A stretch of DNA of 27,661 nt from the IMG/VR virus record IMGVR_UViG_3300021138_000133, positions 1-27,661 of that record. One strand, 5' to 3'. Source of the DNA: a virus (lineage: Duplodnaviria; Caudoviricetes). A program made the position numbers and the translations under genes. This document shows, piece by piece, positions 3,554-19,341 of the stretch. Position 1 is the stretch's first letter. Each line of letters starts with the position of its first letter. The notes below the pieces were generated by a model. That model saw only the letters and a program-made list of their open reading frames with translations, searched no databases and was not told the DNA's origin.

Positions 3554-4063
3554 ATGATTAAAACTATTGGCCCTATAGATTCGGCTAAAATTCTTGAAGT
3601 TTATAACAATATCGAATCAGGAATCCAATGGACGGATTTTGGCCATAAAGGTCGACAAACCGGCCTACAATATCGAGAAGGCACCGATCCATGGGCAGAT
3701 GCAGTTGGCCGATATCAAAGCGTAAGAGAAACCACTTACAATTTATTAAATCCATACTACAAAGATACTGTATTTGAAGAAATCATTGCCGAATACAATT
3801 TATACAGAACTAGACTCATGTGGATCAATCCATTTGCTTGTTACAGCATGCATTATGATGCCGCACCTAGAATACATATTCCACTGATCACTAATCCAGG
3901 TTGTTATTTTGTATTTAAACGTGGTACTGTAGAACATTTACCAGTAGATTCAGTATATCAAGTTGATACCAGATATGAACATACTTTTATGAATGCTTCG
4001 GGTGAAACACGATTACATTTGGTAGGAGTAGTAGACGAGTATGCTACAGCAATCTCAGGTTAA
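3554..4063 (+). CDS. aspartyl/asparaginyl beta-hydroxylase-like Fe(II)/2OG oxygenase
   Basis: RTRLM...HYD...RIHIPLITNP...HTFMN...RLHLV pattern. Confidence 0.85.
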   Translation: MIKTIGPIDSAKILEVYNNIESGIQWTDFGHKGRQTGLQYREGTDPWADAVGRYQSVRETTYNLLNPYYKDTVFEEIIAEYNLYRTRLMWINPFACYSMHYDAAPRIHIPLITNPGCYFVFKRGTVEHLPVDSVYQVDTRYEHTFMNASGETRLHLVGVVDEYATAISG

Positions 4064-4605
4064 ATTATATAATCTTTAAAAATTTCCAAACTTTGATCCC
4101 AAGTAAGTCGACGTCCAGTGGTCTTGTCTCGATAGACTAAACAAAATGTTCGTCTTGGATCAGTTACATTTGATACAGTATGGGCTGTTCCTACTTGAAC
4201 CAGACTGGGTTGTTTAACTTCTTGTGCGTGTACTAAAGTTGCATCTTCTGGATTCCAATGCAGACTACGAGTCATAATAGGTGTAGTAAACACCTTGCTT
4301 GGATTGGCCAGATCAACGTCATACCATTCCATTAGACTTCCAGGGCTCCCATAAGTCCAGTTTAATTTTGTAAAATCTCCACCGTTGTCGTCCACGTGAA
4401 TACTGCCCAGTTGCAAATTCCATTTACAAAAGTATTCTAGCAGAGTAATTCTTAGATTAAAACTTGTTAACAGCTCTACCCATTCAGGATTGACGTAGGT
4501 TTCTACATTAAATTCTAAATGACGTTCTTGCGGAAACGTCAGTGGATCGTATTCCGGCTTGAGCAACGGAATATCGATATTCATATCCTGACAATATTTG
4601 TTCAT
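4060..4605 (-). CDS. HxD...H cupin/2OG-oxygenase-like protein
   Basis: IHVD, KLNW, AHTV..N, R motifs. Start re-assigned to ATG 4605, 5 nt after TATAAATA. Confidence 0.7.
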   Translation of the reverse strand: MNKYCQDMNIDIPLLKPEYDPLTFPQERHLEFNVETYVNPEWVELLTSFNLRITLLEYFCKWNLQLGSIHVDDNGGDFTKLNWTYGSPGSLMEWYDVDLANPSKVFTTPIMTRSLHWNPEDATLVHAQEVKQPSLVQVGTAHTVSNVTDPRRTFCLVYRDKTTGRRLTWDQSLEIFKDYII

Positions 4606-4631
4606 AATAATATTTATATATAGTGGTATGG

Positions 4632-4660
4632 TTGACAACTAATTAAGTTGGTTATACAAT
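4632..4660 (+). promoter_or_regulatory. sigma70-type promoter with inverted repeat overlapping the spacer
   Basis: TTGACA-N17-TACAAT; CAACT-AATTA-AGTTG inverted repeat. Confidence 0.55.
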
Positions 4661-4703
4661 GTAAAGGATCAATATAATAATGGGTATTTTACTGTAAATA
4701 AAT

Positions 4704-4991
4704 ATGTTTATGCTCGAGTTCGAAACAAAACTATTTTATAAAATATTTGATGACTTACCAGAAATCCCTCAGGATTTAGTAGATGAGTATATTTTGTCAA
4801 CAAAATCTAGTCTGGGGCCTGGTCACAAATCACTGCCGGGATATATAAGAGACGACGGCCGGACAGATAGTCCAGAACTGGTATCAGAGGACCTATCCGA
4901 CGATATTAAAGAATGGATAGATAAAAATATAATAACAGCGGCTAGTATTCTTCCATCTAGCAATTATTTTAAACTTCTCATCATTAAATGA
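4704..4991 (+). CDS. hypothetical protein, possibly a truncated N-terminal part of an oxygenase-like gene
   Basis: 95-aa ORF with no catalytic motif; ATGA-coupled to the TctC gene; alternative start 4710. Confidence 0.5.
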   Translation: MFMLEFETKLFYKIFDDLPEIPQDLVDEYILSTKSSLGPGHKSLPGYIRDDGRTDSPELVSEDLSDDIKEWIDKNIITAASILPSSNYFKLLIIK

Positions 4992-5842
4992 AAAAATTCC
5001 TTGTACTATTACTAGTAATGTTACCCACAGTATGCTGGGGTCAAACAACTATAATCGTTCCATTTGCGCCCGGGGGCTCATATGATATACTAGGAAGAAA
5101 ATTTGCACAGTTTGCACAAATTAAAACAGGTCGCCCGTTTGTAGTTGAAAATATCTCGGGCGCAGGCGGAAATATAGGAGTTTCAAAATTCCTAAATTCT
5201 CGTCCAAATACATTACTAATTACCAGCAGTAGTTTATATCTTGCTATAAACAATAAAGAATTTAATTTAGAAGATTTTAGACCTATTGCTATTTTAGCAG
5301 AAGCGCCATTCTTTTTAGCTGTTAATAAATTACAACAGTTTACTTGTGAAAAGTTAAAATATTCAACTGACCATTATTTTTTAGGTAGCGCGGCGCTAAC
5401 TCATACTGAGGTAATTGCAAAAATAATATCATCAAAATATCCCAACATTGAAAATATTCCATACAAGGCAGTTAAACAATCTACAGTAGACCTCATTGGT
5501 GGTCGAATTAATGGTGCCATAACAACAAGTACTAATGATATTATTGATCCGTTAATTCCATTGGCAAATACTTCTAATCGTACAGTTAACGGTGTGCCTT
5601 CATTTAATGATTGCTTAGGAATCGCTAATACGCCGCAGGGAGATTTTTTGTTAATAACAAATACCACTAGCGATGATGCATTTATTAAAGATACAAACAC
5701 ACTAGCCCTGGAATTTCTTAAAGATCGAGATATTCAAGCCTATTATCAAGAAAATTCAATGTCTAGTGACTCGACTAAGTTAAAAGATGTAAGATCAACA
5801 GTTAAGTCTCATCTTGATGCGTGGAAAAGAGTTATAAAATAA
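4988..5842 (+). CDS. tripartite tricarboxylate transporter substrate-binding protein (Bug/TctC family)
   Basis: Signal peptide, IIVPFAPGGSYDILGR, VVENISGAGGNIG, IPYK, DLIGGRI signatures. Confidence 0.9.
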   Translation: MKKFLVLLLVMLPTVCWGQTTIIVPFAPGGSYDILGRKFAQFAQIKTGRPFVVENISGAGGNIGVSKFLNSRPNTLLITSSSLYLAINNKEFNLEDFRPIAILAEAPFFLAVNKLQQFTCEKLKYSTDHYFLGSAALTHTEVIAKIISSKYPNIENIPYKAVKQSTVDLIGGRINGAITTSTNDIIDPLIPLANTSNRTVNGVPSFNDCLGIANTPQGDFLLITNTTSDDAFIKDTNTLALEFLKDRDIQAYYQENSMSSDSTKLKDVRSTVKSHLDAWKRVIK

Positions 5843-7068
5843 TGTTTTTTACTGACGAGTTAGAATTTACTAAACATGGGTATTACCAAGTTAACAATAT
5901 AAAAACTTTAAGTAAATTTGAAGCCTTACGGTTTTCAGGCAACGATATTGGTCAAATTCGATTCGTATACAACGAAGATGTAATGGATCAACAGGATTGG
6001 ACTGTTGAACCAACCGAAGATATCTATGAGTTATATGCTGAACGTGCTCGTCAACTGCGTGGAAAGTACGACTATCTTGTGTTGTTGTACAGTGGCGGAA
6101 TTGATAGCCATACTGTATTAACCTCCTTTTTAGAAAACAACATACGCTTAGATGAAATTTGCTCGTTCACTAATACTCAGGTAGAATCTACGTCAGGCAA
6201 ATTTAATCAAGAAGTATTCAATGCCGCTGTTCCGTTTGTGAATACATTAGATTTAACAAAACTTGGTACTAAATTTAGATTGTTTGATATCAGTGATCTA
6301 GTGATTAACCAATTTGATGATGAGTTTCATTTTGAGAATCATCACTTGTATAACCAAGGAGTTGGCAATAACTGGACCAATGCCACTCGATCACACCTGC
6401 TTAAATCTAAAATACAGGATCATATGAGATTAACTGAACAAGGTAAAACTGTATGCTATATTTGGGGGTATGATAAGCCATTGCTAATGTTTAAAGACAA
6501 TAATTATTATATACAGTTTGCTGATAACTCCATAGACTTAAATATGCGGCAGTACGTTAATAAAAAAATGTTGGCCGGCAAATTTGCTAACTTTTACGAT
6601 GAACCTTTTTATACCTGTAGAGAGTTGCCCAACATAACTATAAAACAAGCCCACTTGTTACTTAAACTAATTAAAACTATTAGTCCTGCGGATCCAAGAC
6701 TACAGTCACAAGATGAACTACCTACTTCGGGTCCGTTTGTTGTACATCATCGAGCCGAGTATTTTAGATTTTTACCCAAGAAGTTAGTCGATGGAGCAAT
6801 TTACCCTAGAGCAAACTTATTACAGTTTAGTGACGATAAAACCAGGACTAGTATGATTTTAGCTGCTAAAGATACTTGGTTTATACGCTCTAATCACCAC
6901 AACCAACACAAGTGGTTACAACATTTAGATAATTTAATAAAAGAAAATCAAGGATTATTTCGTTTTAAAAATAATAAAGTTTTACAGATAAATCATATGC
7001 TTAGTAAATCTTATTGTGTTGGTAAATTTAATCCTTTTGGAGACAACAATGATAATAACAAAAAATAA
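5842..7068 (+). CDS. PP-loop (adenine nucleotide alpha-hydrolase) ATP pyrophosphatase-like protein, long type
   Basis: LLYSGGIDS; clear paralogue of 18181-19341; start at TAATG overlap 5842. Confidence 0.75.
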   Translation: MFFTDELEFTKHGYYQVNNIKTLSKFEALRFSGNDIGQIRFVYNEDVMDQQDWTVEPTEDIYELYAERARQLRGKYDYLVLLYSGGIDSHTVLTSFLENNIRLDEICSFTNTQVESTSGKFNQEVFNAAVPFVNTLDLTKLGTKFRLFDISDLVINQFDDEFHFENHHLYNQGVGNNWTNATRSHLLKSKIQDHMRLTEQGKTVCYIWGYDKPLLMFKDNNYYIQFADNSIDLNMRQYVNKKMLAGKFANFYDEPFYTCRELPNITIKQAHLLLKLIKTISPADPRLQSQDELPTSGPFVVHHRAEYFRFLPKKLVDGAIYPRANLLQFSDDKTRTSMILAAKDTWFIRSNHHNQHKWLQHLDNLIKENQGLFRFKNNKVLQINHMLSKSYCVGKFNPFGDNNDNNKK

Positions 7069-7876
7069 CTGGATTACCTCTAATCTTGAGTCAAGGTATA
7101 CTAATCCAACGGTAGATTTTCAATTGACATTTAATATGTATCCATTTAAAAAAATGTCTTTTGACAAGGCAGTCGAAATGACTGCTAAAGAAATTGCTAG
7201 TAAATATTCAAATTTTTACATATCGCTGAGCGGTGGTTACGATTCAGAGTTTGTATTAAGGGCATTTCATCGACATAATATTCCAATGACTCCTATCATT
7301 GTTTGTGTTGGCGCCGACTACCCAGAACGTAGGTTTGCGTACAAAGCCTGCGAGGATTTAGGAATAACCCCAGTAGAAATTACACCCACAGACGACGAGT
7401 TTGTAGAATGTTGTCGAGAAAAAATATTTAAGAAATTCGGCGGCATTGGGTATAACTCTACTCAGGTAATGTTTTCCGCAGAATACGCAAAACAAAATAA
7501 CGGCACATTGATAACCGGCGGGCATTTTATCGGCGACGAACATACTAATCTTGCCGACGATTGGGTAACCACATTTGAGTGGGATTTTTATACAGGCTAT
7601 GCTTATCCAGAGGTTAATAAAATTGATTTTTACTTATATACTATGGAGTTGATGTGGTCGATGTTTCCAGATCATAGCAACGGTAATTGGAGTGAGTATA
7701 AGCAAAAATTATTAGGGCTTGAATATCGAGAAAAAACTAGACCGCGATATTCAGACGATGTCAAGGCAGGATTGCGCTCAATGCTTGGAAAAAGAGAGGA
7801 TTATACACACGGAACCGAGCACCGTTGGTCCAAGGAAGAGTTTGATAAGATGATCAACCCTTTCCTTATCAAATAG
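7049..7876 (+). CDS. PP-loop ATP pyrophosphatase-like protein, short type
   Basis: ISLSGGYDSEFVL; GGAG SD before ATG 7049; paralogue of 10001-10882. Confidence 0.75.
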   Translation: MIITKNNWITSNLESRYTNPTVDFQLTFNMYPFKKMSFDKAVEMTAKEIASKYSNFYISLSGGYDSEFVLRAFHRHNIPMTPIIVCVGADYPERRFAYKACEDLGITPVEITPTDDEFVECCREKIFKKFGGIGYNSTQVMFSAEYAKQNNGTLITGGHFIGDEHTNLADDWVTTFEWDFYTGYAYPEVNKIDFYLYTMELMWSMFPDHSNGNWSEYKQKLLGLEYREKTRPRYSDDVKAGLRSMLGKREDYTHGTEHRWSKEEFDKMINPFLIK

Positions 7877-7878
7877 TA

Positions 7879-7907
7879 TTGACTATTATAAATAGTTGTA
7901 GTATAAT
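7879..7907 (+). promoter_or_regulatory. sigma70-type promoter with embedded TATAAATA
   Basis: TTGACT-N17-TATAAT; TATAAATA at 7887-7894. Confidence 0.6.
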
Positions 7908-7933
7908 GTAAATTACGATAATGGATTTATTTA

Positions 7934-8770
7934 ATGTTTAAAAACCCCCCAAGAATCTTTGCCCATAAAACGGTAGTTGACAAAGGCAACTTTGTCTTGC
8001 CTGATTATATACTCAACAAAGGCAATGATGGTGTAAATCTATTCCACAGATACTGTCCTCACAGGATGTATCCGCTACATACTCCCGGTGAGCACGTGGA
8101 TGAAATTAACTGTAAACTTCACAATTTTAGCTGGAGCAAAGATGGTACTCCGTTGAACAATCCTAAAAAGATACATTGTGGGGCAACTACTACCGGCCGT
8201 TCTGGATTAGTATTTAAAAATTTTAAAGAGCCCGATCATGCATGGGTTGATGAGCTAGCATCAGAAACTAATCTGGTATACAGTCACTCGTTCCAAGGTG
8301 AAAGTAAAGGTAGTTGGTTATGGTTAATGGATATTGAGGCCGATTTATTCCATGTGTACAAAGGCGGAACACATCCAATACTATCTGAACAGATTGATAT
8401 TAATGATGTAGTATTAGATCAAGGCGACGGGTGGATATTACAAAGTCATCCCGACGGCTGGTGGCTTTACATATTTCCATTTACATTCGTTGAGTACGGT
8501 CGTCCAGGGTGTGTTATGGTTCAAAATATTGTGCCCGATGATACTAATTCAGAATATGGATTTAAATGGATAACACAATTTTATTATGCTCCGACCGTTA
8601 CAGCAAATGCTAAAATATTATTTGAAGTACTCGAAACTGTGTTTAGAGAAGATGTGGAAACTGCTGAATTGCAAAAGGGCGACTATTTTCCATTGATGAA
8701 AGCACTTAATAGATTTGAGGACCATTGTGTACATTTTGGTCGCTGGGTTACGGAAAATAAAATAAAATGA
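7934..8770 (+). CDS. Rieske non-heme iron oxygenase alpha-like subunit
   Basis: CPH...CKLH Rieske ligands; DLFH...TH and FRED mononuclear-iron ligands. Confidence 0.85.
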   Translation: MFKNPPRIFAHKTVVDKGNFVLPDYILNKGNDGVNLFHRYCPHRMYPLHTPGEHVDEINCKLHNFSWSKDGTPLNNPKKIHCGATTTGRSGLVFKNFKEPDHAWVDELASETNLVYSHSFQGESKGSWLWLMDIEADLFHVYKGGTHPILSEQIDINDVVLDQGDGWILQSHPDGWWLYIFPFTFVEYGRPGCVMVQNIVPDDTNSEYGFKWITQFYYAPTVTANAKILFEVLETVFREDVETAELQKGDYFPLMKALNRFEDHCVHFGRWVTENKIK

Positions 8771-9129
8771 GCTATTGGGGATATCATTTAATGCTGGACT
8801 GCGGTGATTGTGACCGCACCGCAATGACCGACAAGGCTGTTGTCCGGGCCTTTGTTAAAGAACTTGTTGAGGCCATTGACATGATTGCTGTAGGTGAACC
8901 ATGGATTGAACGTACTGCTATAGGTATTCCAGATAAAGAAGGATTCAGCCTGTACCAGTTGATAGTTACCAGTAATATTTCAGCGCACTTTGTTGATGAG
9001 CCCGGACAAATTTATCTAGATGTGTTTAGCTGTAAACAGTTTAATGCCGATACTGTCAAGGAAGTGTTTATAAAATACTTTAATCCCCGGCATATTAAAA
9101 CCAACTTCCTAACTAGAAACGCTGACTAA
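8767..9129 (+). CDS. speD: pyruvoyl-dependent S-adenosylmethionine decarboxylase family proenzyme
   Basis: GYHLMLD...TSNISAHF...YLDVFSCK; 120 aa, class 1b size. Confidence 0.85.
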   Translation: MSYWGYHLMLDCGDCDRTAMTDKAVVRAFVKELVEAIDMIAVGEPWIERTAIGIPDKEGFSLYQLIVTSNISAHFVDEPGQIYLDVFSCKQFNADTVKEVFIKYFNPRHIKTNFLTRNAD

Positions 9130-9956
9130 ACTTTTGTCTTTTTAAGATAGTCGTTAAAGTGTTTTTTAGGCTGTTCAGCTAGTCCTTTACCGTAGACAAC
9201 TATAGCTTCGGACTGTGTCTTATCTTGCTGCCAGGCTGTTTCCCAAATGCCAGAGTTTAACCGCCATTCGGCTAAATTAGACATATTATCTTTGTATTTC
9301 CAAACTACTACATCGGTTGATGTATCGCTAGTAGGAACACAGACTGTAATAAACATAGCACCTGGTTGCCATTCTATCATAGTATAAGGATAAACTGCTA
9401 GCCATAGAGCAGCTAACCCAGGACCGCCACTGGTAGGTGTAACTCGCTGTAGGCTACCATTGTCAAAATAATCCCAGGTAACATCAGCAGCGCCGGCGAT
9501 ACCAATGGCATCATAGACATTTTCATGTACTAAAGGAATATGATCAACGTCTAAGAATACATCCATTATAATTCTAGCATCTGCTTGTACCGTATCAATT
9601 CTACGTTCTACCAAGGAAAAGTTATCCAATGACAAGTGTTCGACTTCGGGAATACTGTAAGGCTGATCAAACAATAGCCCTTTATAGTTGTAAGCATCAG
9701 TTAATGATAGTTTTTTCTTATTGCACACAGGAGTGTATCCGTTGCCGACGGGCAAACCGTTATTATCCCAGGACCATCCGTGATACTGGCAGCGTAGTTC
9801 CTCTGTGGTTGCGGAAATAATTCTACTGGCTTGATGCGGGCAAACATTTGACCCAATTTGATATTGTCCGTTGTTAATTAAAAATTTCTTATTTTGAAAT
9901 TGTGGCAACGGTGTAGAATAATTTAATCTTAGATCAGAAACGTGTGCTAGAAACAT
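9126..9956 (-). CDS. Rieske non-heme iron oxygenase alpha-like subunit
   Basis: CPHQ...CQYHGW Rieske ligands; DVDHIPLVH and QQD iron ligands. Confidence 0.88.
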   Translation of the reverse strand: MFLAHVSDLRLNYSTPLPQFQNKKFLINNGQYQIGSNVCPHQASRIISATTEELRCQYHGWSWDNNGLPVGNGYTPVCNKKKLSLTDAYNYKGLLFDQPYSIPEVEHLSLDNFSLVERRIDTVQADARIIMDVFLDVDHIPLVHENVYDAIGIAGAADVTWDYFDNGSLQRVTPTSGGPGLAALWLAVYPYTMIEWQPGAMFITVCVPTSDTSTDVVVWKYKDNMSNLAEWRLNSGIWETAWQQDKTQSEAIVVYGKGLAEQPKKHFNDYLKKTKV

Positions 9957-10000
9957 AGAAATACTTATTCGTCTACAGCATATACATTAAATATAACGCA

Positions 10001-10882
10001 ATGGAACTAATACACAACAACTATCTTCGAGGATCAGGACACGGCAAAACCTGGCAAGTAGCAATAGATCCACCTACCAGACCGGTAAAAAGTTACTATG
10101 AAGAAACGGTTACTGCATTAGAAATGGTCTGGGCCAACCGGCAAGGGCCTTTACAACTATGTTATAGTGGCGGACTTGACAGCGAATATGTCCTGGCTGT
10201 TTTATTAGAAATTGGTATGACTGCTGAAGTCATAATAATGCGTACCGAATATAATCATCCCGAAACTGATTATGCTTTTAAATTTTGCTCAGCCCGCAAT
10301 ATAACTCCTAAAATAATAGAGTTAAACTTTGATCGTTTTGTTGAATCGGGACAGCTATTAGCCATAGCCGAATCGATTGAATCAGCCGGTGTACATATTC
10401 CAACTAATATGTGGCTGGCCAGTCAACTTGATGGTACAGTTATAACTGGCAATGATCCTCCACATATGAAACCAATTGACGGTGTTTGGCACCTAGATGA
10501 AGAAGAGTATATACACACTCAATTGCGCTATTTTAAACAGAACGGCCTACAAGGAACTCCGTTTTTATTAAGTTATACACCCGAACTCATGCTATCTTTT
10601 TTAACAGATCCTACCATGGTGGCCCTGGCCAATAATCAAATACCCGGAAAGTTGGGCACTAATTCTAGCAAGGTTCATGTATTCAACAACAACGGTGGTA
10701 GATTTGTACTAGAACAACGAACTAAACTACACGGATACGAACTGGTCGAGCAGAGCCCAATTTGGAATCACCCAGATATACGTCTCGTCGAAAGTTGGAA
10801 AGCCCAATGGTATGGTTCATCTGATCATCAGTATCACGAAGTAGTAGAAACATTATCGTCAGGAAAAACATCAATTAAATGA
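10001..10882 (+). CDS. PP-loop ATP pyrophosphatase-like protein, short type
   Basis: LCYSGGLDSEYVL; GTVITG; late KLHGYE motif. Confidence 0.75.
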   Translation: MELIHNNYLRGSGHGKTWQVAIDPPTRPVKSYYEETVTALEMVWANRQGPLQLCYSGGLDSEYVLAVLLEIGMTAEVIIMRTEYNHPETDYAFKFCSARNITPKIIELNFDRFVESGQLLAIAESIESAGVHIPTNMWLASQLDGTVITGNDPPHMKPIDGVWHLDEEEYIHTQLRYFKQNGLQGTPFLLSYTPELMLSFLTDPTMVALANNQIPGKLGTNSSKVHVFNNNGGRFVLEQRTKLHGYELVEQSPIWNHPDIRLVESWKAQWYGSSDHQYHEVVETLSSGKTSIK

Positions 10883-11427: not shown

Positions 11428-12206
11428 AGAATATTTTTAATGTAAACAGATTGAAGAATTTACAGATATTAACTATCTCTGTTTATATACTCGCAGCTGT
11501 ATCTGTAGCTGTTATACCGTTTACGTGGTCTATGGCTGCCCTAACTATTTTTATGTATTTTTTAATATTTGGGTTCGGTGTTAGTATAACCCTACACCGT
11601 AGCATTACTCATCGAGCATTGTCAATGAATCCTGTGGTTGAAGTAGTAGGCAAGTTCTTTGCTAGTATGGGCGGAACTGGTAGCCCTATTAGTTGGGTAT
11701 TAATACACAAAGCACATCACAAGTATTCAGACACAGATTTAGATCCGCACCGTGCGCAAGATATATTAAAATACCTAGTGGGCAAGTATCCCGAAGTTAG
11801 CCAAGTTGGTCTGCGCAGACTAGCAGAAAGTCGCGTTAATAAAATACTACACAGACACTATTACCTAGTAATGTTGGCCTATGCAGCTGTTTGGGCTGCA
11901 CTGGGCGTGGACTTTTTCTTTTATGGATTTGTTTATCCAATGGTATTGACCATGGTTGCCGGGCATTTGGTAAATTGGTATACCCACTCCAAACGTTGGC
12001 TCAACTACAGATTACACAATATCAAAGATACCAGCCAAAATAACATTATAATAGCACTGTTGACCTGGGGCGAAGGGTTTCATAATACTCATCACAAATA
12101 TGCTGGTCGTGCCAATTTTGGTATGCATTGGTGGGAGTGCGATCTATCGTTTTTATTCATTCGACTACTAGCCGGACTAAAACTGGCGCAAATACGAATT
12201 AAGTAG
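11424..12206 (+). CDS. membrane fatty-acid (delta-9-like) desaturase
   Basis: His boxes HRSITH, HKAHH, HNTHH; GEGFHN; SDTDLDPH; TM helices; ATGA overlap start. Confidence 0.92.
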   Translation: MKNIFNVNRLKNLQILTISVYILAAVSVAVIPFTWSMAALTIFMYFLIFGFGVSITLHRSITHRALSMNPVVEVVGKFFASMGGTGSPISWVLIHKAHHKYSDTDLDPHRAQDILKYLVGKYPEVSQVGLRRLAESRVNKILHRHYYLVMLAYAAVWAALGVDFFFYGFVYPMVLTMVAGHLVNWYTHSKRWLNYRLHNIKDTSQNNIIIALLTWGEGFHNTHHKYAGRANFGMHWWECDLSFLFIRLLAGLKLAQIRIK

Positions 12207-12248: not shown

Positions 12249-12551
12249 ATGGCAATATGGACTAAACTTACCACAACAACTTCAAAACCCAGTGGTGTGG
12301 AATTTTTCTTGTCAGACTCTGACACTAGATACGAAGATTTATGTAAATCATTAGAAGGTTTTGTTAGTTATAACAAAACACAACCAGATGCTAATACAAG
12401 AATTCAGGAAATAGTATGGGCTACTAACGCAGCCTGGGTAAATTACCTAGATGTTGCAAATACCAATCAAATGATGCTTGATAATAAAGCATATAATCAA
12501 GCCAATGGCATTACATATAGTGCTGTAGTAACTGACGTTCCTAGTACATAA
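12249..12551 (+). CDS. small Thr/Asn-rich protein
   Basis: Own TAAATA (12219-12224) and strong AGGAG SD; 100 aa. Confidence 0.85.
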   Translation: MAIWTKLTTTTSKPSGVEFFLSDSDTRYEDLCKSLEGFVSYNKTQPDANTRIQEIVWATNAAWVNYLDVANTNQMMLDNKAYNQANGITYSAVVTDVPST

Positions 12552-12589
12552 ATTATATCACAATAATATAAAATTGGTGGTTAAATATT

Positions 12590-12612
12590 CTCGACGCATT
12601 TAATGCGTCGAG
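12590..12612. repeat. perfect 11-bp inverted repeat
   Basis: CTCGACGCATT-T-AATGCGTCGAG between two TAAATA hexamers; no U-tract. Confidence 0.85.
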
Positions 12613-12622
12613 TAAATACAAA

Positions 12623-13327
12623 ATGAGAACCAAAGAAGCCATTGAATCTATTAAGTCCAGGATAATAGAACCGTACAGTATAACGGACTTTATAAGCTAT
12701 AGTGATGTTAAACATCTTATTCAGTTATTCGAATCACAACGTACAGAACCTAATGCCGTATATAAAAATACTGGCCCAATAACCTTGGATATTATTGACT
12801 ATTCAGAAGATCCAATAATATCTACTATCATCAAAAAAATAAAAGAAGAAATTGGACCAATCGAAATAACTGCTGGATTCTTCTTTACAACTAATTACCC
12901 CCATATCATACACAATGATGATACATTTGAGTTACCAGACGGTGTTTACCGTGCTATAACATTGCCGCTACAAATAACTCGTACCTCGGGCGATGAATTA
13001 CCAAAGTTGTGTTTCTTTGATCAGTTTTATTTTCACGGTCCTGCTAAGTTTTTTAACGGCGATACCAACGTAGCTACTTACTATAACAAACAAGTCTACG
13101 AGTACAGTGATGTAGATGGTTTAGTTGATACACAGTTTGTTGACACAGATAAATTGTTTACACACCTAAAGCCCAGCTGGCTTAACGGACTAAGTTTACA
13201 CAGTACCTTGGAGTGGCGCCCGGGTAATGCCATTATATTTGACAGCGTTAGATTACATTGTGCTAGCGATTTTAGGCGGCTAAATATTCAATCAAAGCTA
13301 GCAATAAGTATTTTTACACGATTATGA
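12623..13327 (+). CDS. Fe(II)/2OG oxygenase-like protein
   Basis: IHND; WRPGNAIIFDSVRLHCAS; terminal K..ISIF. Confidence 0.8.
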   Translation: MRTKEAIESIKSRIIEPYSITDFISYSDVKHLIQLFESQRTEPNAVYKNTGPITLDIIDYSEDPIISTIIKKIKEEIGPIEITAGFFFTTNYPHIIHNDDTFELPDGVYRAITLPLQITRTSGDELPKLCFFDQFYFHGPAKFFNGDTNVATYYNKQVYEYSDVDGLVDTQFVDTDKLFTHLKPSWLNGLSLHSTLEWRPGNAIIFDSVRLHCASDFRRLNIQSKLAISIFTRL

Positions 13328-13863
13328 TTTACGAATTTCTTAATATACCCAATCACAAATCAATATCTGATCAAGTATACGAATATGTATTGTTTAAAAC
13401 AACAATAATGAAAGCAAATGCCATATGGAATTGGGCCAATACTCAGGAAATCTTAATAACAGTCCCAGAATTAAAAGCGGCACTTGATCGGCTGAATTTA
13501 GAAATTCAGCAGATATCCATTGTCAAGGCAGAGCCAGGATCAAATATTAAAATGCACATTGACTACGATCAAGAACCAAGAGCCTTGTGGCCAATTAGAA
13601 ATACTCAGGGTTCTTATACAAAGTTCTTTGATGTTGATAGAAAAAATATTGTGGAGCAACGTGGCCCAATGGGCGATATTTATTATGAGATTTTAAATAC
13701 TGATCAAGCCATGCAAATAGATTCATTAGAATTACTTGCTCCGGTTATGTTCAAGCCTTGGATAGCTCATGGTATTTGGTCCAATCCTGAGTGTGCGGAA
13801 CCTAGACTTACTATGACAATAAAATTTAAGAATGTTACTAACTATGTTTTTCCAAAAGATTAA
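13324..13863 (+). CDS. HxD...H cupin/2OG oxygenase-like protein
   Basis: MHID, WPIRN, AHGIWSN, RLTMTIKF. Confidence 0.75.
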   Translation: MIYEFLNIPNHKSISDQVYEYVLFKTTIMKANAIWNWANTQEILITVPELKAALDRLNLEIQQISIVKAEPGSNIKMHIDYDQEPRALWPIRNTQGSYTKFFDVDRKNIVEQRGPMGDIYYEILNTDQAMQIDSLELLAPVMFKPWIAHGIWSNPECAEPRLTMTIKFKNVTNYVFPKD

Positions 13864-14365
13864 AATAGCAGATCCAGACTGGAATCTAGATTCAGTTGAA
13901 CTTCCGGAACCCTTTACCACCTTGTATGAACGTCATTATACAAATATAAACGAAATAGTGCCAGTTGAGTTCATAGAAAAACTTAAAACTATTGACATGG
14001 TACCAGATTATATACGATTGTTTGTGTGGCCCAGAAACAGTTGCGGAATCTGGCATATAGATGGTAATATAAATACCTTTCGTCATTGTTCGATGAATTG
14101 GATACTCAAAGGGTCCGGGTTAATTCAATTCAACAATTCGATCAAACTGCACCCAATACTTGGAGTACACAAAGGGTTACAAGGTACCTTAGAAGACGCA
14201 GTCGAAGCCGAAACTGATGGACATGGATGTATAATTGATACTGCCAGTTGCCACAGAGTTGTAACTGGCGATGATGGTAGAACAACCATTTGTTTAAGCT
14301 ACAAAGACAAAGACGTAACGCATGCGGTAATGCTAAAAAAATTAACTGCCAATGGAATGATATGA
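13844..14365 (+). CDS. HxD...H cupin/2OG oxygenase-like protein
   Basis: WHID, MNW, IIDT..CHRV, RTTICL; start re-assigned to 13844. Confidence 0.75.
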   Translation: MFFQKIKIADPDWNLDSVELPEPFTTLYERHYTNINEIVPVEFIEKLKTIDMVPDYIRLFVWPRNSCGIWHIDGNINTFRHCSMNWILKGSGLIQFNNSIKLHPILGVHKGLQGTLEDAVEAETDGHGCIIDTASCHRVVTGDDGRTTICLSYKDKDVTHAVMLKKLTANGMI

Positions 14366-14910
14366 AAAATATAGTGTTTTTACCGATTGATATAGATCTA
14401 ACTGAATTAAACTTTCAACAATTAGACAATACCAATAAAGCTGGAAAATGGAACGGTTATTGGGACGCTAGTTTTATTAATGATGAAACAGTTAAACAAA
14501 CTAATCTTGACCGTATTTTAAATCAACTTCCATTTACCCGACTGACTCGACTACTGCACAAAGTTCAGACTGTGGCAGTCGGCGCACATTTGGATTGTTC
14601 AACCGACATGATCTACGAAGCAGGCGAGCACGACTACATAAAAAGTATTGAACCCAGTGGGTATAGACTTGTATTAAGTGGCAGTCCCAAAGCATTGTGG
14701 GTATATGATAACAAAGAATGGCATAACGTTACACTGCCTAGCGTTCCGTGTTGCTATGTATTAAATGCTTCAGCGGGTATACATAAAGTAGCCGCTGACG
14801 TTGGAAGAGAAACAATCTTTACACGTGGCTATGTAGATTTAGAAAAGCATCAAGAAATTTTAAAACGTAGTCTTGAAAAATACGGGGACTACGCTGTATA
14901 TTTTCAGTGA
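14362..14910 (+). CDS. HxD...H cupin/2OG oxygenase-like protein
   Basis: AHLD, EPSGYRLVL, IHKV, R; ATGA overlap start at 14362. Confidence 0.72.
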   Translation: MKNIVFLPIDIDLTELNFQQLDNTNKAGKWNGYWDASFINDETVKQTNLDRILNQLPFTRLTRLLHKVQTVAVGAHLDCSTDMIYEAGEHDYIKSIEPSGYRLVLSGSPKALWVYDNKEWHNVTLPSVPCCYVLNASAGIHKVAADVGRETIFTRGYVDLEKHQEILKRSLEKYGDYAVYFQ

Positions 14911-15599
14911 GTATGTGCTAGATTAGCCACTACCCGACTAACATTCTCTGCAGTAAATGGAATGTTTAAAATCAAGTGTTGACTGTTGTCAACCCAACTA
15001 ACAGTGCGATGTGTCATGCGAGTATTGACATAGTAGACTTGCCCAGGTTGTATGGCCATTTTTCTATCGTCCATCAACCAATCATACTGTAAGGGTCCTA
15101 CATTGTTAAGAAATACAATAAGACGGAACACATCTCTAGGCATACTTGGATGATCACGGTGTGGAACAAAGTATCCGCCAGTATTGGACTGTACAATGAA
15201 TGTCCGACCTAACGGTTCCCACGTACTTAAAAATGGATGTAGACTAGTACAAGCCCGATATACATCAGTTGGTTGATTAAATTCCATTTCACTTAATCTG
15301 CGCCCAGCAGCGTAACTAGCTTCGGCTAAACTAGGAACATCTCTGTGTGTTTTACCCGGTAAGTTGGTTACGGTAAGTGCTCGTCGATTATTAGGACGAT
15401 CAGTACGTGGCAAGTAGTCAACCCAATCTGCGTCAAATTGACTAATCTCATTCATATATTGACCAAGATCAATACGGATGTTAAGGGGTTCAAATACCCC
15501 AAGGTTTGATAACACTAACTCGTTAGCAACAGTTTCGAGAGTAACTTGACTAGGATCATATTTTGCGGATTGACCGCTTATACCCGGTGGGACTTTCAT
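14904..15599 (-). CDS. Asp/Asn beta-hydroxylase-like Fe(II)/2OG oxygenase
   Basis: GGYFVPHRDH, FRLIVFLN, GQVYYVNTRMTHRTVS. Confidence 0.8.
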   Translation of the reverse strand: MKVPPGISGQSAKYDPSQVTLETVANELVLSNLGVFEPLNIRIDLGQYMNEISQFDADWVDYLPRTDRPNNRRALTVTNLPGKTHRDVPSLAEASYAAGRRLSEMEFNQPTDVYRACTSLHPFLSTWEPLGRTFIVQSNTGGYFVPHRDHPSMPRDVFRLIVFLNNVGPLQYDWLMDDRKMAIQPGQVYYVNTRMTHRTVSWVDNSQHLILNIPFTAENVSRVVANLAHTH

Positions 15600-16174
15600 A
15601 ATACTCCGGTATCAGTTTTGTTTAATTGACGAAATGCCCATATACGTTCTTGACATTGCCAACATACACCACATCTGCCATACTGTTGTTCGGTACAGGT
15701 ATGAGTGATATCAATTAAATCTTCTTGCCCTTCGGCATACATTATTTCTAGTATACGATCTTTGTATAAGTCAACAAATGGAAATATAATGCGTGGATCT
15801 AAAGATCGTTTTGAACGTATCGGTGCGCTGGGATGATCAGCTAGCTCCGGTGGATTAGTATTTAAACCAATGTATAAGTGATCAACTGGGTATCGTTCAA
15901 ATATCTCCTTAACTGCGGTGGTACTTTGTAATCTATGATACACGGTAGGATCGCCTACAAGAATAGTTTTTGGTATGCTCAATCCAAATTTACGATTCAT
16001 ATGGTCAATGACAGGATCGGCATATAATGCCGCTCCATCTGTTTTGGCTATAGTAAACGGTTGTAAGTTAATAGTAGGGTTGGATTGAACCAACAGGTAA
16101 AATAATACAGCACTATCAATACCGCCGCTTAACATTAACCCGTAGCGTTTATCTGTTGTGGTTTCTATCAGCAT
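15596..16174 (-). CDS. QueC-like (7-cyano-7-deazaguanine synthase-like) PP-loop protein
   Basis: MLSGGIDS, PFVDLYK, Zn site HTC...CGVCWQCQER; start 16174 lies 4 nt after TAAATA. Confidence 0.8.
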   Translation of the reverse strand: MLIETTTDKRYGLMLSGGIDSAVLFYLLVQSNPTINLQPFTIAKTDGAALYADPVIDHMNRKFGLSIPKTILVGDPTVYHRLQSTTAVKEIFERYPVDHLYIGLNTNPPELADHPSAPIRSKRSLDPRIIFPFVDLYKDRILEIMYAEGQEDLIDITHTCTEQQYGRCGVCWQCQERIWAFRQLNKTDTGVL

Positions 16175-16215
16175 GGGATATTTAGTGGCATATTCTGCGG
16201 GCAATAAATATCAAT

Positions 16216-16839
16216 ATGAACTTACTATTTGCTCAAGTTGACTTGCCTGTATTAGATAAAAAATTGGCTGCTGAACAAATTTTAGCCATACCAAATCGAT
16301 ATAGTTTCTGGGATAACTATCGTAGTACTAAAATGATACCTCTTATGACCAAATCAGGTATGGAAGCGTCAAATCACGTTTCGGGTGAATTTAATTGGAC
16401 TCCGCATACTCCTACAATTATTTCAGATTGGTTTGACCATGTGGTATTTCCATGGATGGGCATGCGAGCCAGAACAATGGCATTGATCACGCAACCACAA
16501 TTTCCAAATACTGAACATATTGATTGCGAACCCAACGAGCTTGATACTCAACAACACAAATTTAGAATTGTGTTACAGGGCCGTACAGATACTCTTTACT
16601 TTATCACGGATAAAGGACGTGTTCCTGCTCCAGAAATTGATTCTGCGTTTATTATGGACGGAGGTTGGCCACATGGTATGACCAACACAACCGACGAGGT
16701 TAAGGTTACACTAGCAGTCGGAGCCCCTTGGACAGGTAACGATCATTATGACAATATTGAACTGCTAATGAATCGCAATGATTACCGTATGCCCGACAAC
16801 CTCAGTGCCTACTGGCGTAACAGTTCAACCAAAAAGTAA
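16216..16839 (+). CDS. HxD...H cupin/2OG oxygenase-like protein
   Basis: EHIDC, HKFRIVLQG, WPHGMTN, KVTLAVG. Confidence 0.75.
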   Translation: MNLLFAQVDLPVLDKKLAAEQILAIPNRYSFWDNYRSTKMIPLMTKSGMEASNHVSGEFNWTPHTPTIISDWFDHVVFPWMGMRARTMALITQPQFPNTEHIDCEPNELDTQQHKFRIVLQGRTDTLYFITDKGRVPAPEIDSAFIMDGGWPHGMTNTTDEVKVTLAVGAPWTGNDHYDNIELLMNRNDYRMPDNLSAYWRNSSTKK

Positions 16840-16859: not shown

Positions 16860-16888
16860 TTGACAAACACAGTAATTTACTGTATAAT
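16860..16888 (+). promoter_or_regulatory. sigma70-type promoter
   Basis: Perfect TTGACA-N17-TATAAT. Confidence 0.85.
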
Positions 16889-16908: not shown

Positions 16909-17133
16909 ATGAAATCAAGAATTGATAGTCGCACCAGCCAAATTGATACAGAACGGTGTGTGGAAAATGCTGGCGGTCGTTATGATATGGTCATTGCTGT
17001 GTCACAACGCTTGCGTGAATTAAAGCGTCGATCACGTGAAAATAGTAGTGTATATGTTACACCCATTGATGCCTTGCTCGAAATGCAAGCAGGCCAGATC
17101 GATATGATCAACTACATGGCCAAAGTGAAATAA
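16909..17133 (+). CDS. rpoZ: RNA polymerase omega subunit homologue
   Basis: CVENAGGRYDMVIAVSQRLREL...ALLEMQAGQI matches the omega pattern (RY/F-DLV..AA.RARQL...AL.EI..G); AGGAG SD. Confidence 0.85.
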   Translation: MKSRIDSRTSQIDTERCVENAGGRYDMVIAVSQRLRELKRRSRENSSVYVTPIDALLEMQAGQIDMINYMAKVK

Positions 17134-17143
17134 GGAAAAGAAC

Positions 17144-17308
17144 ATGTCAAAACCAAAACAAACAGCAAGCGAACGAGATCGCACATTATCTGGACAATGG
17201 TCCAAAACCGAGAAGCGGGCAAATATTAGCCGGCAGATGATGGATAGTCGACTTCGCACACATGCCGCACTTAAGGCATTTAAGCAAGGCCTATTTTTAA
17301 ACAAGTAA
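17144..17308 (+). CDS. small basic hypothetical protein (54 aa, not in the ORF track)
   Basis: MSKPKQTASERDRTLSGQWSK...FLNK*; TAAGGA SD. Confidence 0.7.
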   Translation: MSKPKQTASERDRTLSGQWSKTEKRANISRQMMDSRLRTHAALKAFKQGLFLNK

Positions 17309-17311
17309 CTT

Positions 17312-17357
17312 AGAAGTATTCGGAGTGGTTAAAAGCGTCAGTCTATCGTAAAATTGA
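17312..17357 (+). pseudogene. possible 5'-half tRNA relic (Ser/Leu-like)
   Basis: CGGAGTGGTTAAAAGCG D-loop-like segment, then TCAGT/ATTGA stem with an enlarged loop; no T-arm. Confidence 0.35.
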
Positions 17358-17369
17358 TAAATAATATTG

Positions 17370-18059
17370 ATGATCAATATTATGAAATTATGCGATTTTG
17401 GATGTAACCGCTCTGCTACTAAACAGTTTAAGTCTGGGAAATATTGTTGTTCAAATTCTTCTAGCGGTTGTCCAACTATGAAAAAAAGAAATAGTGCTGG
17501 AGTTAAGGCCAAACGAAAAGAATTAGGTAATAACTTTTGGGCTAATGGACATCCTAAAGGAGCGACAGGATTAACACCGTGGAATAAAAATAAAACTGGA
17601 TTACAAACTGCATGGAATAAAGGATTAACAAATGATCCAAGATTAACAGGCAAGGCATCAACAGCAGAAAAAGAATTAGAAAGAAAAAATAAACTTAGTA
17701 AAATAGCTACAAAAAGACACGAAGCGGGTTGGGATAACAAAGCTGGAAGATGCAACAAATACAAATATAGTTCTCCAACCGCCGGCGATATAACACTAGA
17801 TGGCACTTGGGAATTATCAGTTGCAAAATGGTTAGATGCACAGAATTATAACTGGAAACGGAACACAAAACGATTTCAATATACAAATTTAAAAAATGCA
17901 TTAAGTCATTACACACCAGATTTTTGGGTGGAAGAATTAAATGGATACCTAGAAGTTAAGGGTTACGAAACCGAATTAGATAGATGCAAATGGCAACAAT
18001 TTACAGAAAATTTAACTGTGTGGAAGAAAAAAGATTTACAGAAATTAAAGTTAGTTTAA
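17370..18059 (+). CDS. free-standing PD-(D/E)xK endonuclease with N-terminal Cys cluster
   Basis: LCDFGC...CCS...GCP; PWNK/AWNKGLT repeats; GTWE...YTPDF...LEVKGY. Start 17370 or 17382. Confidence 0.8.
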   Translation: MINIMKLCDFGCNRSATKQFKSGKYCCSNSSSGCPTMKKRNSAGVKAKRKELGNNFWANGHPKGATGLTPWNKNKTGLQTAWNKGLTNDPRLTGKASTAEKELERKNKLSKIATKRHEAGWDNKAGRCNKYKYSSPTAGDITLDGTWELSVAKWLDAQNYNWKRNTKRFQYTNLKNALSHYTPDFWVEELNGYLEVKGYETELDRCKWQQFTENLTVWKKKDLQKLKLV

Positions 18060-18071
18060 GTAACGCATTAA

Positions 18072-18160
18072 CGAAGGCTCCCATAATTGGTATTGGAGCG
18101 GATTGCTAATCCGTCGACTGCGTAAGCGGTTTCAGAGTTCGAATCCCTAGCCCTCCGCCA
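18072..18160 (+). tRNA. tRNA-Ser(GCT), degenerate or chimeric
   Basis: GCGGA-TTGCTAA-TCCGT anticodon arm, long variable arm, GCCA end; two mismatches each in acceptor and T stems. Confidence 0.7.
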
Positions 18161-18180
18161 AGACTTTATAAGTAATATTA

Positions 18181-19341
18181 ATGTTAACCCTATCAAAAGA
18201 TAAATTTGGTTTCTATACAGTAGGCGAATTTAAAACGTATTCAAAAGTAGAAGCTATTGAACTTAGCAATAGAACAGGCCTACCACTCAAGTGGGATTTT
18301 AATAACTTAGAATTTTCAACTTATAACTGGGCTGTTGAACCAATTGCAAGTCTTAAAGAGCTGTACGGCCAACGAGCTCGTGATATCAGAGAACACTACG
18401 ACTATATTGTGGTATGGTGGTCAGGCGGTGCCGATAGTTATACCGTATTAAAATCATTTGTTGATAACAATTTATTCGTCGATGAAATAGCCACATTTCA
18501 TAACTATGCCGGAGACAAGTCCTGGGATAGTTATCTAAACAGTGAGATTAAGCGAGTAGCTATGCCAGTAGCAGAAAAGTTACTGGAGCATAGCCCTAAT
18601 ACACGATTTAGATTAATTGATTTAACTGATTACGAGTCAGATTTGTTCATTAAAGACGATAATCAGTTTGACTTCTTATATAAATCTAATGCACAGTTTA
18701 GTCCTAATCAACTGGCCCGTAGATACATTAGAGAAAAAGAAAAAGACTATCTTGATTTGTTTTCTCAAGGTAAGAGCGTATGCTTTGTCTGGGGCTGTGA
18801 TAAACCTCGTGTAAATTTGCAAGCAGACAGGCGATATGCTATCCAATTTGTTGATGTTGCTGATAATTGTGTAAATCCAATGACCCAGACGTTGAATAGA
18901 CCATGGGAAATCGACGAGTTCTTTTACTGGAGCCCAGACGCAAAGGATTTATTGTGCAAGCAAGGGCACGAAATGGTACGCTATCTTAGAAATATTCCTC
19001 CGCAAGATTTTGACTCAAAATGGCTGTCCACCGAACACAATTGGCTAGGTGGCGCTGTTGTTGATAAGAAACCCTGGTATCTAACCAATGCCGGGGTACA
19101 CAGGCTAATATACCCAGACTGGAATCCCGACACATATACCAGCGGTAAACATGATTTTTTATTAATGTGGAGCCCCAGGGATAATTGGTTCCTACGTGAT
19201 GTTAATTCCGATCAGTATAAAATTTATCAAGCAGGACTTGAAAAACTTGAAAGTATTGCTGGCGAGCAATGGCTCAGGCCCGGTGGCGGAATAGATCAAG
19301 GCCTAAAAACTTGTGTTAGCCCACCTTTATATTTAGAATGA
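18181..19341 (+). CDS. PP-loop ATP pyrophosphatase-like protein, long type
   Basis: WWSGGADS; paralogue of 5842-7068 (ELY..RAR..R..YDY, QGK.VC..WG.DKP). Confidence 0.78.
   Translation: MLTLSKDKFGFYTVGEFKTYSKVEAIELSNRTGLPLKWDFNNLEFSTYNWAVEPIASLKELYGQRARDIREHYDYIVVWWSGGADSYTVLKSFVDNNLFVDEIATFHNYAGDKSWDSYLNSEIKRVAMPVAEKLLEHSPNTRFRLIDLTDYESDLFIKDDNQFDFLYKSNAQFSPNQLARRYIREKEKDYLDLFSQGKSVCFVWGCDKPRVNLQADRRYAIQFVDVADNCVNPMTQTLNRPWEIDEFFYWSPDAKDLLCKQGHEMVRYLRNIPPQDFDSKWLSTEHNWLGGAVVDKKPWYLTNAGVHRLIYPDWNPDTYTSGKHDFLLMWSPRDNWFLRDVNSDQYKIYQAGLEKLESIAGEQWLRPGGGIDQGLKTCVSPPLYLE

Follow-up and report, generated by a model that had tools for sequence, protein, structure and literature searches.

The 27,661-nt stretch analysed here (the window), which is the whole of the virus record IMGVR_UViG_3300021138_000133 (Caudoviricetes), carries an island of about 20 enzyme genes in about 13 kb (the island proper, 3554-16839), the core of which is found again in dozens of other phages and a few bacteria. 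We found that this enzyme kit is real, under selection and modular, and that its genes are not independent morons. We favour, tentatively and at somewhat less than an even chance, the reading that the island likely makes an amide-linked acyl compound, either an N-acyl-polyamine or an amino-lipid, late in infection, and that this product then likely undergoes strain-specific oxidation. The folds, motifs, linkage, selection and promoter motif are observed, and the substrates, the order of steps, the product and its destination are what we infer. The genes constitute a fixed core with an exchangeable periphery, probably in two modules. Module A appears to be formed by a short PP-loop enzyme (PPS), a GNAT acyltransferase of the family that we call G34 and a desaturase, together with Rieske and ABM-like genes; module B appears to be formed by a long PP-loop enzyme (PPL) with a TctC or DctP binding protein, often with DUF2061. 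The original prediction, made from the letters of the window, had listed eight HxD...H oxygenases, five SGGxDS proteins, two Rieske enzymes, a desaturase, a pyruvoyl decarboxylase and a TctC protein at 3554..19341. All of them are intact in the sequence, and three parts were absent from that list (GNAT 10879, ABM-fold 12249 and the oxygenase relic 4704). As to the extent, the gene content stands, but the island proper ends at 16839 and is followed by RpoZ, an endonuclease and tRNA-Ser, and the PP-loop gene at 18181 is separate. The features are as follows, with genes named below by their first coordinate.

3554..4063, plus strand: Asp_Arg_Hydrox-family oxygenase, H100-D102 and H143 (Pfam E 3e-5; homologs in 15 groups of loci)
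4060..4638, minus strand: predicted double-stranded beta-helix (DSBH) oxygenase, H81-D83 and H153, paralog of 13832 (motif, profile)
4632..4703, plus strand: putative promoter region of the relic-TctC-PPL-PPS unit, sigma70-like 11/12 at 4632-4660, TAAATA at -9
4704..4991, plus strand: relic, N-terminal third of a ninth oxygenase without HxD (positions 3-77 of a 195-position profile, E 1e-6)
4988..5842, plus strand: TctC/Bug periplasmic carboxylate-binding protein, PFAPGG..D (BugE/BugD/TphC structures, E 9e-15)
5842..7068, plus strand: PPL, AsnB-fold by homology to 18181 (32%; motif, sequence comparison)
7049..7876, plus strand: PPS of a divergent clade (motif, tree)
7934..8770, plus strand: Rieske oxygenase 1, sigma70-like 11/12 at 7879-7907 and TAAATA at -45 (family scan, motif)
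8767..9129, plus strand: SpeD-fold pyruvoyl decarboxylase, Q64 T68 S69 H74 F75 Y83 C89 (Pfam AdoMet_dc E 5e-18)
9126..9956, minus strand: Rieske oxygenase 2, divergent from the core operon (family scan, motif)
10001..10882, plus strand: PPS, core (profile, alignment, tree)
10879..11427, plus strand: GNAT-fold acyltransferase of family G34, core (model pLDDT 93; Foldseek E 2e-5; VIA Z 11.0; 232 homologs)
11412..12206, plus strand: membrane fatty-acid desaturase with three His boxes, core (Pfam E 6e-18)
12249..12551, plus strand: ABM/Dabb-fold small protein with its own TAAATA and a strong ribosome-binding site (Atlas model, TM 0.73-0.75 to ABM clusters)
12623..13327, plus strand: predicted DSBH oxygenase, H97-D99 and H212 (motif)
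13324..13863, plus strand: predicted DSBH oxygenase, H78-D80 and H149 (motif)
13832..14365, plus strand: predicted DSBH oxygenase, H75-D77 and H141 (motif, profile)
14362..14910, plus strand: predicted DSBH oxygenase, H76-D78 and H141 (motif)
14904..15599, minus strand: predicted DSBH oxygenase, H147-D149 and H197 (motif)
15596..16204, minus strand: QueC-like PP-loop enzyme, C-x7-C-x2-C-x2-C cluster, start codon uncertain (Pfam QueC E 3e-6)
16216..16839, plus strand: predicted cupin/DSBH oxygenase, H101-D103 and H153, last gene of the island proper (motif, family scan)
16909..18160, plus strand: non-pathway block of RpoZ, a 54-aa open reading frame (ORF), an endonuclease and tRNA-Ser (library scans, sigma70 12/12 site)
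18181..19341, plus strand: second PPL, AsnB/beta-lactam-synthetase fold, TAAGTA at -12 (model pLDDT 93; 321 homologs)

Linkage was assessed across related loci. Three IMG/VR profile scans confirmed 400/454, 143/237 and 37/103 stretches, from which we retained 79, 76 and 36 loci. Two single-sequence scans added 9 more and GTDB one, and the window itself was included; the resulting 194 loci fall into 114 groups. Desaturase and GNAT occur together in 55 groups, each without the other in 4 and 3, and are both missing from 52. Rieske genes come with a PPS in 28/28 groups and ABM-like genes with a desaturase in 34/35, while the 35 groups that hold G34 contain a desaturase in 32 cases and a PPS in 28. 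TctC or DctP accompanies PPL in 46 of 49 groups. Negative associations of PPL in the same co-occurrence test were treated as sampling artefacts. Three loci (L158, L159, L162) repeat most of the window's order, from the receptor to the desaturase, and the periphery in relatives varies, with B12 and SPASM radical SAM enzymes, TauD, ATP-grasp, PanD and NMO. Among the best 150 PPS matches, 13 have at least 420 aa, and 7 of these are fusions with a GNAT-like domain, located at one end or the other, which exceeds the Pfam cut-off in 3. The median ratio of nonsynonymous to synonymous substitution rates (dN/dS) was 0.04-0.22 for 11 families, taken over 110 disjoint pairs among related loci, with the window's own nearest pairs being saturated at synonymous sites. 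Co-occurrence, purifying selection and PP-loop-GNAT fusions agree with the linked multi-step pathway proposed in the original prediction, which had named in advance co-occurrence and selection as its tests; over the 114 groups the genes do co-occur and, at these dN/dS values, are under purifying selection. The set does not look like one fixed pathway: an exchangeable periphery surrounds a fixed core, and there are probably two modules.

Amide-forming chemistry is suggested by the five SGGxDS ORFs (5842, 7049, 10001, 15596 on the minus strand, and 18181), which are of three kinds: PPL (5842, 18181), PPS (7049, 10001) and QueC-like (15596). PP-loop enzymes adenylate a carboxyl or carbonyl group. 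Structure comparison places the PPL model nearest to AsnB (1ct9; Z 10.9, rmsd 5.6, 284 aligned), with beta-lactam synthetase at Z 9.8 and TsnB9 at Z 8.6. The 386-aa model aligns only from AsnB residue 116, has no N-terminal Cys and lies far under the TIGR01536 cut-off; PPL is predicted on this basis to have the fold of the AsnB synthetase part without a full glutaminase domain. PPL has SGGxDS and lacks an Ntn glutaminase with Cys1, and so falls outside the class-B asparagine synthetases. Lacking a glutaminase, these enzymes must take ammonia or an amine as their nucleophile. E. coli AsnB (1ct9), beta-lactam synthetase (1jgt), carbapenam synthetase (1q15) and TsnB9 (7ylz) share the fold over nearly the whole PPL model, with SGGxDS invariant; PPL differs from them in its approximately 10-13% identity, in that chain residues before about 100-137 are unmatched, and in that it stays under every family cut-off. 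The fold of the model is in agreement with the amide-ligase chemistry that had been predicted. The relation of PPS to PPL is remote (HHalign probability 95.6), and SGGxDS is the sole invariant in a PPS alignment of 57 rows; the motif is retained in 125/131 PPL and 96/107 PPS sequences. With E up to 1e-30, the PPS profile has matches in 978 clusters (50% identity level); the PPL profile has them in 400 stretches of IMG/VR. There is no family model for either and no match in 50,697 phage records; library family scans name none of PPL, PPS and G34, nor seven of the eight oxygenases. The QueC-like protein 15596 has the PP-loop and the C-terminal four-Cys cluster of QueC, yet falls outside the QueC pathway: it scores 22 bits on the QueC equivalog, whose cut-off is 150, it has a weak Cap9 match (E 0.1), and no FolE, QueD or QueE neighbours were found in the island. 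A QueC-like gene goes with oxygenases in 7/7 groups, which is not significant, and in L163, L164, L172 and L175 it lies within an oxygenase array adjoining G34-desaturase.

Acyl chemistry is suggested by the neighbours of G34 and the desaturase. Pfam-confirmed acyl carrier protein (ACP), AcpS, FabZ or ketosynthase (KS) genes occur in 16 groups, 16/16 of them with both desaturase and GNAT, and in 0/55 groups without a desaturase. This carrier-protein linkage points to an acyl substrate. In one locus (L183) one strand carries KS-ACP-FabZ-PPS-Rieske, in that order, and the opposite strand AcpS-G34-desaturase; a second ACP gene is convergent. The loci L083, L084 and L086-L088 contain 61-68% identical orthologs of 10001, which sit in Rieske-PPS-(FabZ-ACP-KS) operons adjoining AcpS-G34-desaturase-ACP, and the best homolog of Rieske 9126 (52%) is in a Rieske-PPS-FabZ-ACP-KS operon. 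The original prediction had allowed for a virion protein, a lipid, tRNA/DNA or a small molecule as substrate; within this span the GNAT, the desaturase and the carrier linkage favour an acyl substrate and disfavour tRNA/DNA. Structural matches of GNAT 10879 include AAC(6')-Ib, the nocardichelin acyltransferase NcdE, LasI and TofI. The N-acyl amide synthases that use acyl-ACP (FeeM, LuxI/LasI, and the ornithine-lipid enzyme OlsB with OlsC/OlsD/LpxO tailoring) resemble the island in their GNAT fold, in ACP, FabZ, KS and desaturase neighbours and in Asp_Arg_Hydrox-type hydroxylases. In contrast to FeeM, LuxI and OlsB, the island is phage-encoded and couples the GNAT to an ATP-dependent AsnB-fold ligase and Rieske enzymes. 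Some relatives (L183:5817-11538, L087, L088, L178, L186) carry a phage mini type II fatty-acid set, of ketosynthase, two ACP types, FabZ and AcpS, joined into the island. Elsewhere G34 is fused to a second GNAT-like domain with a desaturase next to it (L187:9989-11167), and five to eight desaturase paralogs are arrayed within about 20 kb in L106, L107, L112 and L176.

The Rieske ORFs carry the CxH..CxxH cluster and the DxxH..H..D iron ligands of Rieske non-heme oxygenase alpha subunits, which are invariant in 28/28 aligned sequences, with the motifs in 33/33. The best solved relative of their profile is the carnitine monooxygenase CntA (E 1e-17, profile positions 7-254 of 284), followed by SxtDIOX/SxtT and Stc2-type enzymes; the substrates of all of these are small amine-bearing molecules. 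A source of amine may be the pyruvoyl enzyme 8767, which has the Ser/His/Cys processing residues and Q, T, F and Y around the cleavage Ser; the proven S-adenosylmethionine decarboxylase of phiN3 has an Asp at the Thr site of 8767. According to PMC10407285, the residue types Gln, Thr, Phe and Tyr are diagnostic of ornithine decarboxylases, and ornithine decarboxylase (ODC) activity is reported for five freshwater-phage homologs in PMC9992855. Protein 8767 is likely, judging from its residues, an ornithine decarboxylase, as fits the amine supply of the original prediction. It shares its 120-aa size, fold and Q/T/F/Y with SpeDC of freshwater phages (PMC9992855, PMC10407285); it differs in belonging, by sequence, to a putative TAIG[IM]P-loop subgroup placed between Rieske and PP-loop genes in 4/4 groups. 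Marine relatives have PanD instead (5 groups), which is another pyruvoyl amine source. No spermidine synthase was found in 4/4 fragmentary records with the island decarboxylase (6-28% complete).

Protein 4988 has the sequence match, the P-F-x-P-G-G-x-x-D loop and the predicted export of the TctC/Bug proteins, to which it can be assigned; its Pfam TctC match (E 2e-5) is under the cut-off and its N-terminus is signal-peptide-like by eye. No TctA or TctB was found in the window. A Gram-negative porin gene directly follows TctC/PPL in L021, L025 and L041 (L041:14483-15403). The HxD plus distal His triad is present in 8/8 oxygenase ORFs (3554, 4060 and 14904 on the minus strand, 12623, 13324, 13832, 14362, 16216), which are predicted DSBH/Fe-2OG (iron/2-oxoglutarate) oxygenases; only 3554 is over the Pfam cut-off, and the other seven are assigned by motif and by profiles from related loci. 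Around the relic, a relative's contig swaps 4619-5043 for 157 other letters. An intact 2OG-Fe oxygenase (299-871; PHROG 2954, E 4e-48) lies amid tRNA genes outside the island and without TAARTA.

Taken in order, the pathway that we propose would begin with the decarboxylation of ornithine to putrescine by 8767. GNAT 10879 would then transfer an acyl chain from acyl-ACP or acyl-CoA to the amine, the acyl donor being presumably supplied by the host here and by the phage in some relatives. PPS 10001 and 7049 may adenylate a carboxylate so that a second amide is closed, and the desaturase, the two Rieske enzymes (with a host reductase), the ABM-fold protein and the changing set of Fe/2OG oxygenases would tailor the product. 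In the second module, TctC 4988 with PPL 5842 and 18181 may capture and amidate an external organic acid. The product would most likely end up in the envelope of the infected cell or on the virion, sites at which selection would favour variation. In its mode the island is like the stand-alone amide-forming natural-product clusters, yet it falls outside the AsnB, lasso, NRPS-independent siderophore (NIS) and QueC types, and it is set apart from AsnB-type stand-alone amide formers by the pairing of its PP-loop enzymes with TctC or GNAT.

Several observations weigh against the acyl-amide pathway. The loci were fetched by PPL, PPS and G34 queries and the phages are related, so that counts over the 114 groups are not independent and p-values overstate. 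The decarboxylase is present in only 12/114 groups and its link to Rieske genes is not significant (p 0.16); being so sparse, it implies that putrescine is not a universal substrate. Moreover, its four diagnostic positions were mapped onto 8767 from the text of the paper alone and not from its figure. The window has no ACP gene, and ACP is found in only 6/34 phage records and 1/7 near-complete ones, in which the desaturase is present in 7/7; the carrier is thus optional. FeeM (Z 9.9) and LasI (Z 9.8) match GNAT 10879 about 1 below generic acetyltransferases (Z 11.0), and in this sense the island GNAT is no closer to them than to generic GNATs. The node joining 10001 to its FabZ-linked orthologs is without support (0.06) inside a clade of 1.00. 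The window desaturase lies outside the clade that holds 20/23 G34-linked desaturases; a possible explanation is that the desaturase slot was refilled by a non-orthologous desaturase. Lastly, eight oxygenases are more than one small product needs.

The timing of expression bears on the product and on its rivals. TAARTA was found within 30 nt of 204/455 island unit heads, 58/606 internal genes and 201/889 other heads, over a background of 2.1%, and its position peaks at -11/-10. With the T4 late promoter as a model, this spacing would imply leaderless transcripts. Within 45 nt, TAARTA occurs at 10/10 fibre-gene heads, at 0/6 RpoZ and 0/8 phosphoesterase heads and at none in several sigma70-type families; at 30 nt the fibre-gene heads have it in 0/9, the matches appearing only at 45 nt. 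In the window, 9/11 unit heads have it within 45 nt (4% background). Its presence on both strands, far from structural genes, makes the late-type control look selected rather than positional. Two units with 11/12 sigma70 matches may start early. Overall, scans for sigma70 sites and terminators were at chance (66 vs 63 and 10 vs 11). The late-type promoters of the original prediction are thus supported by TAARTA enrichment at unit heads, while the step from them to virion decoration is so far unsupported: the window lacks structural genes, only 13/114 groups have a fibre gene, and the two sigma70-like units and the occurrence of the kit in cells weaken it further.

We ranked the acyl-amide pathway over virion decoration, a signal or chelator, a peptide, nucleic acid modification and independent morons, the first three being not fully exclusive. 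Decoration of a virion protein, for example a tail fibre whose lysine or acidic residues are acylated or receive isopeptide-linked amines, with hydroxylation to follow, could alter host range or shield the particle, and the TAARTA common to island and fibre gene, the desaturase in 12 of the 13 groups with a fibre gene and the Asp/Asn hydroxylase family of 3554 all speak for it. We consider it unlikely, given that the fibre gene is missing from 101/114 groups, that small or lipid substrates would suit the membrane desaturase, the CntA-like Rieske enzymes and the periplasmic binder, and that the kit is present in a Bdellovibrionales genome. Somewhat less likely still is a released signal or metal chelator, an acyl-putrescine amide of alcaligin or acyl-homoserine lactone type with TctC/DctP for reception or recapture. 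Putrescine siderophore clusters combine a decarboxylase, a GNAT, a Rieske enzyme, an ATP-dependent ligase and a periplasmic binder, and the island gene set matches this logic; alcaligin-type NIS clusters, beside which rhizoferrin is said to be another putrescine-based NIS siderophore, likewise have a decarboxylase, acyltransferase, Rieske hydroxylase, ATP-dependent amide ligase and binding protein. The GNAT matches listed above, the RND exporter next to a Bradyrhizobium copy and the porin gene after TctC-PPL-PPL-TctC in L021 go in the same direction. However, family scans of the island proteins gave no IucA/IucC ligase, and those of the window no flavin N-hydroxylase, NIS synthetase, TonB receptor or regulator; TctC/DctP tracks PPL rather than the PPS core (p 0.57), and late expression in a cell near lysis suits a siderophore poorly.

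A ribosomal peptide, for which AsnB-fold enzymes would serve as lasso cyclases or amidases and the precursor gene would lie elsewhere, seems improbable. In one locus (L200), genes for a 192-aa protein whose tail is rich in Cys, Gly and Ser, for an S9 peptidase and for a glycosyltransferase-like protein precede two PPS and a GNAT, and relatives commonly carry B12 and SPASM radical SAM enzymes. However, island genes overlap, with overlapping stop and start codons, or sit at most 76 nt apart, so that a stand-alone precursor longer than about 25 codons would not fit; the window family scans gave no peptidase or RRE match, within the window the lasso type does not apply, and the linkage of desaturase and ACP is left unexplained. 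DNA or tRNA base modification (QueC-, TilS- or TET-like chemistry) would fit the QueC-like 15596 with its Cys cluster, the matches of the PPS profile to TtuA, MnmA and NcsA at the PP-loop and the 7 tRNA genes of the window, yet those matches span only the ATP-binding loop, the full-length fold of PPL is that of AsnB, and such chemistry leaves no role for the desaturase, TctC or ACP. We regard it as very improbable for the island, and it may hold for 15596 alone. We would give just as small a chance to a hot-spot that gathers unconnected auxiliary genes, for uptake, membrane fluidity and polyamines, with no single pathway behind them. Gene content and order do vary widely at a shared site after a phosphoesterase gene, the island holds a relic gene, and stand-alone phage desaturases and ODCs are known (PMC5776448, PMC9992855). 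Nevertheless, the fixed PPS-G34-desaturase order, the fusions, the overlapping stop and start codons and the near-exclusive co-occurrence largely refute it for the core; it may hold for some peripheral oxygenases.

No paper on this island and no characterised phage pathway of such a kind was found in the literature searched, supplements being outside the search. The main text of PMC7162821 contains none of six terms sought there. A related case is the cyanophage S-SSM6a, for which PMC7824862 describes a predicted secondary-metabolite cluster rich in 2OG/cupin oxygenases with a predicted surface-decoration or metabolite role, and cyanophages encode delta-9 desaturases according to PMC5776448. 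These share with the island an oxygenase-rich phage cluster and a phage-encoded desaturase; unlike the island, the S-SSM6a cluster is built on carbamoyltransferases and a halogenase in that description, and the terms asparagine, PP-loop, Rieske, desaturase and acyl carrier are all absent from the main text of PMC7824862.

Copies in cellular genomes were searched with a distant PPS profile in metagenomes (65/183 stretches confirmed). A locus labelled Bdellovibrionales by NCBI (L211) holds oxygenases, radical SAM enzymes, GNATs, a desaturase, an SDR, B12 radical SAM enzymes and a PPS, adjoining a zinc ABC transporter and histidine kinases. A locus labelled Bradyrhizobium (L200) has PPS-PPS-GNAT flanked by genes for AsnB, a peptidase, precursor-like and GlnA-like proteins and an RND exporter, and in L199 PPS-GNAT is close to a type I exporter and a fatty acyl-AMP ligase. 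Module A is therefore not virus-only. The stretch L211:1-13100, from a metagenome-assembled genome (MAG), is a chromosomal copy of the whole tailoring kit, and L196, L201 and L225 also look cellular and carry PPS. L200:1183-12617 (AsnB, S9 peptidase, the 192-aa protein with the Cys/Gly/Ser-rich tail, glycosyltransferase-like and GlnA-like genes, two PPS, GNAT and RND exporter) is a candidate for a peptide or metabolite cluster not yet described, from a genus with cultured members; its PPS had no match in plasmids. In AT-rich L204, L207, L209 and L226, three to four tandem B12 radical SAM genes are interleaved with PPS, with no desaturase in view. Of 138 pattern matches to PPL in GTDB contigs, 1 was a relative; the 14.8-kb contig that carries it is binned in a Polynucleobacter MAG, may be a mis-binned phage piece and was not used to name the host. 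The PPS profile found 0/199 and 0/401 in genomes sampled from that MAG's family and phylum, a weak negative without a positive control.

More broadly, and with clearly less confidence than the acyl-amide pathway itself, these loci might represent a diversifying natural-product pathway widespread in aquatic jumbo phages, in which two unnamed AsnB-fold ligase families and GNATs would make acyl-polyamines that coat the virion or the cell, or a signal read by phage-encoded periplasmic receptors; the copy in a predatory Bdellovibrionales genome would hint at a shared chemistry for occupying Gram-negative cells. If the acyl-amide reading holds, lake phages make a class of modified lipids or metabolites that nobody has sought, and two new amide-ligase families would be usable as enzymes. 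Tests would not require culture of the phage, given the Bradyrhizobium copy and the compact core of four genes.

The source is an uncultured lake jumbo phage. The window has RpoZ, a MoxR-like ATPase, endonucleases and the 7 tRNA genes aboard; the nearest cultured relatives of the ATPase are PA5oct/Paride-type jumbo phages (50%), and near-complete relatives sharing these gene families measure 344-525 kb. The 24 runs listed for the window's sequence are freshwater, lake-water or freshwater-sediment metagenomes; no RNA run is among them, which carries no information on expression. All 30 bins are covered by contigs from two other freshwater runs, the long pieces listed differing by 0-2 letters and no piece alone spanning the whole stretch, and this coverage argues against an assembly artefact. 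A contig joint 3057-16897 bypassing the entire island was set aside, one of its two sides having just 26 letters. GC is 0.376 in the island proper and 0.44 and 0.42 on its flanks.

Behind the island proper, RpoZ (omega subunit of RNA polymerase, 16909-17133, Pfam E 3e-5), with a perfect sigma70 site at 16860-16888, the endonuclease and tRNA-Ser stand before the last PP-loop gene, 18181, which is a separate insert behind tRNA-Ser. RpoZ homologs recur close to island sites in relatives. Upstream, the conserved phosphoesterase gene (1652-2203) marks the site just downstream of which the island tends to insert (L107, L120, L086, L039, L053, L160), and 16 of 20 phosphoesterase groups have island-type genes at most 4 genes downstream. 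Three putative free-standing endonucleases lie at 2192-2899, 17385-18059 (family scan) and 26650-27279 (by eye). The MoxR-like AAA ATPase (20441-21526) and a protein with a vWA-like motif by eye (25379-26674) have between them a run of more than 15 small overlapping ORFs (21657-25320), many with an F-x-L-[RK]-W-like end, which are probably a paralogous early-gene family.

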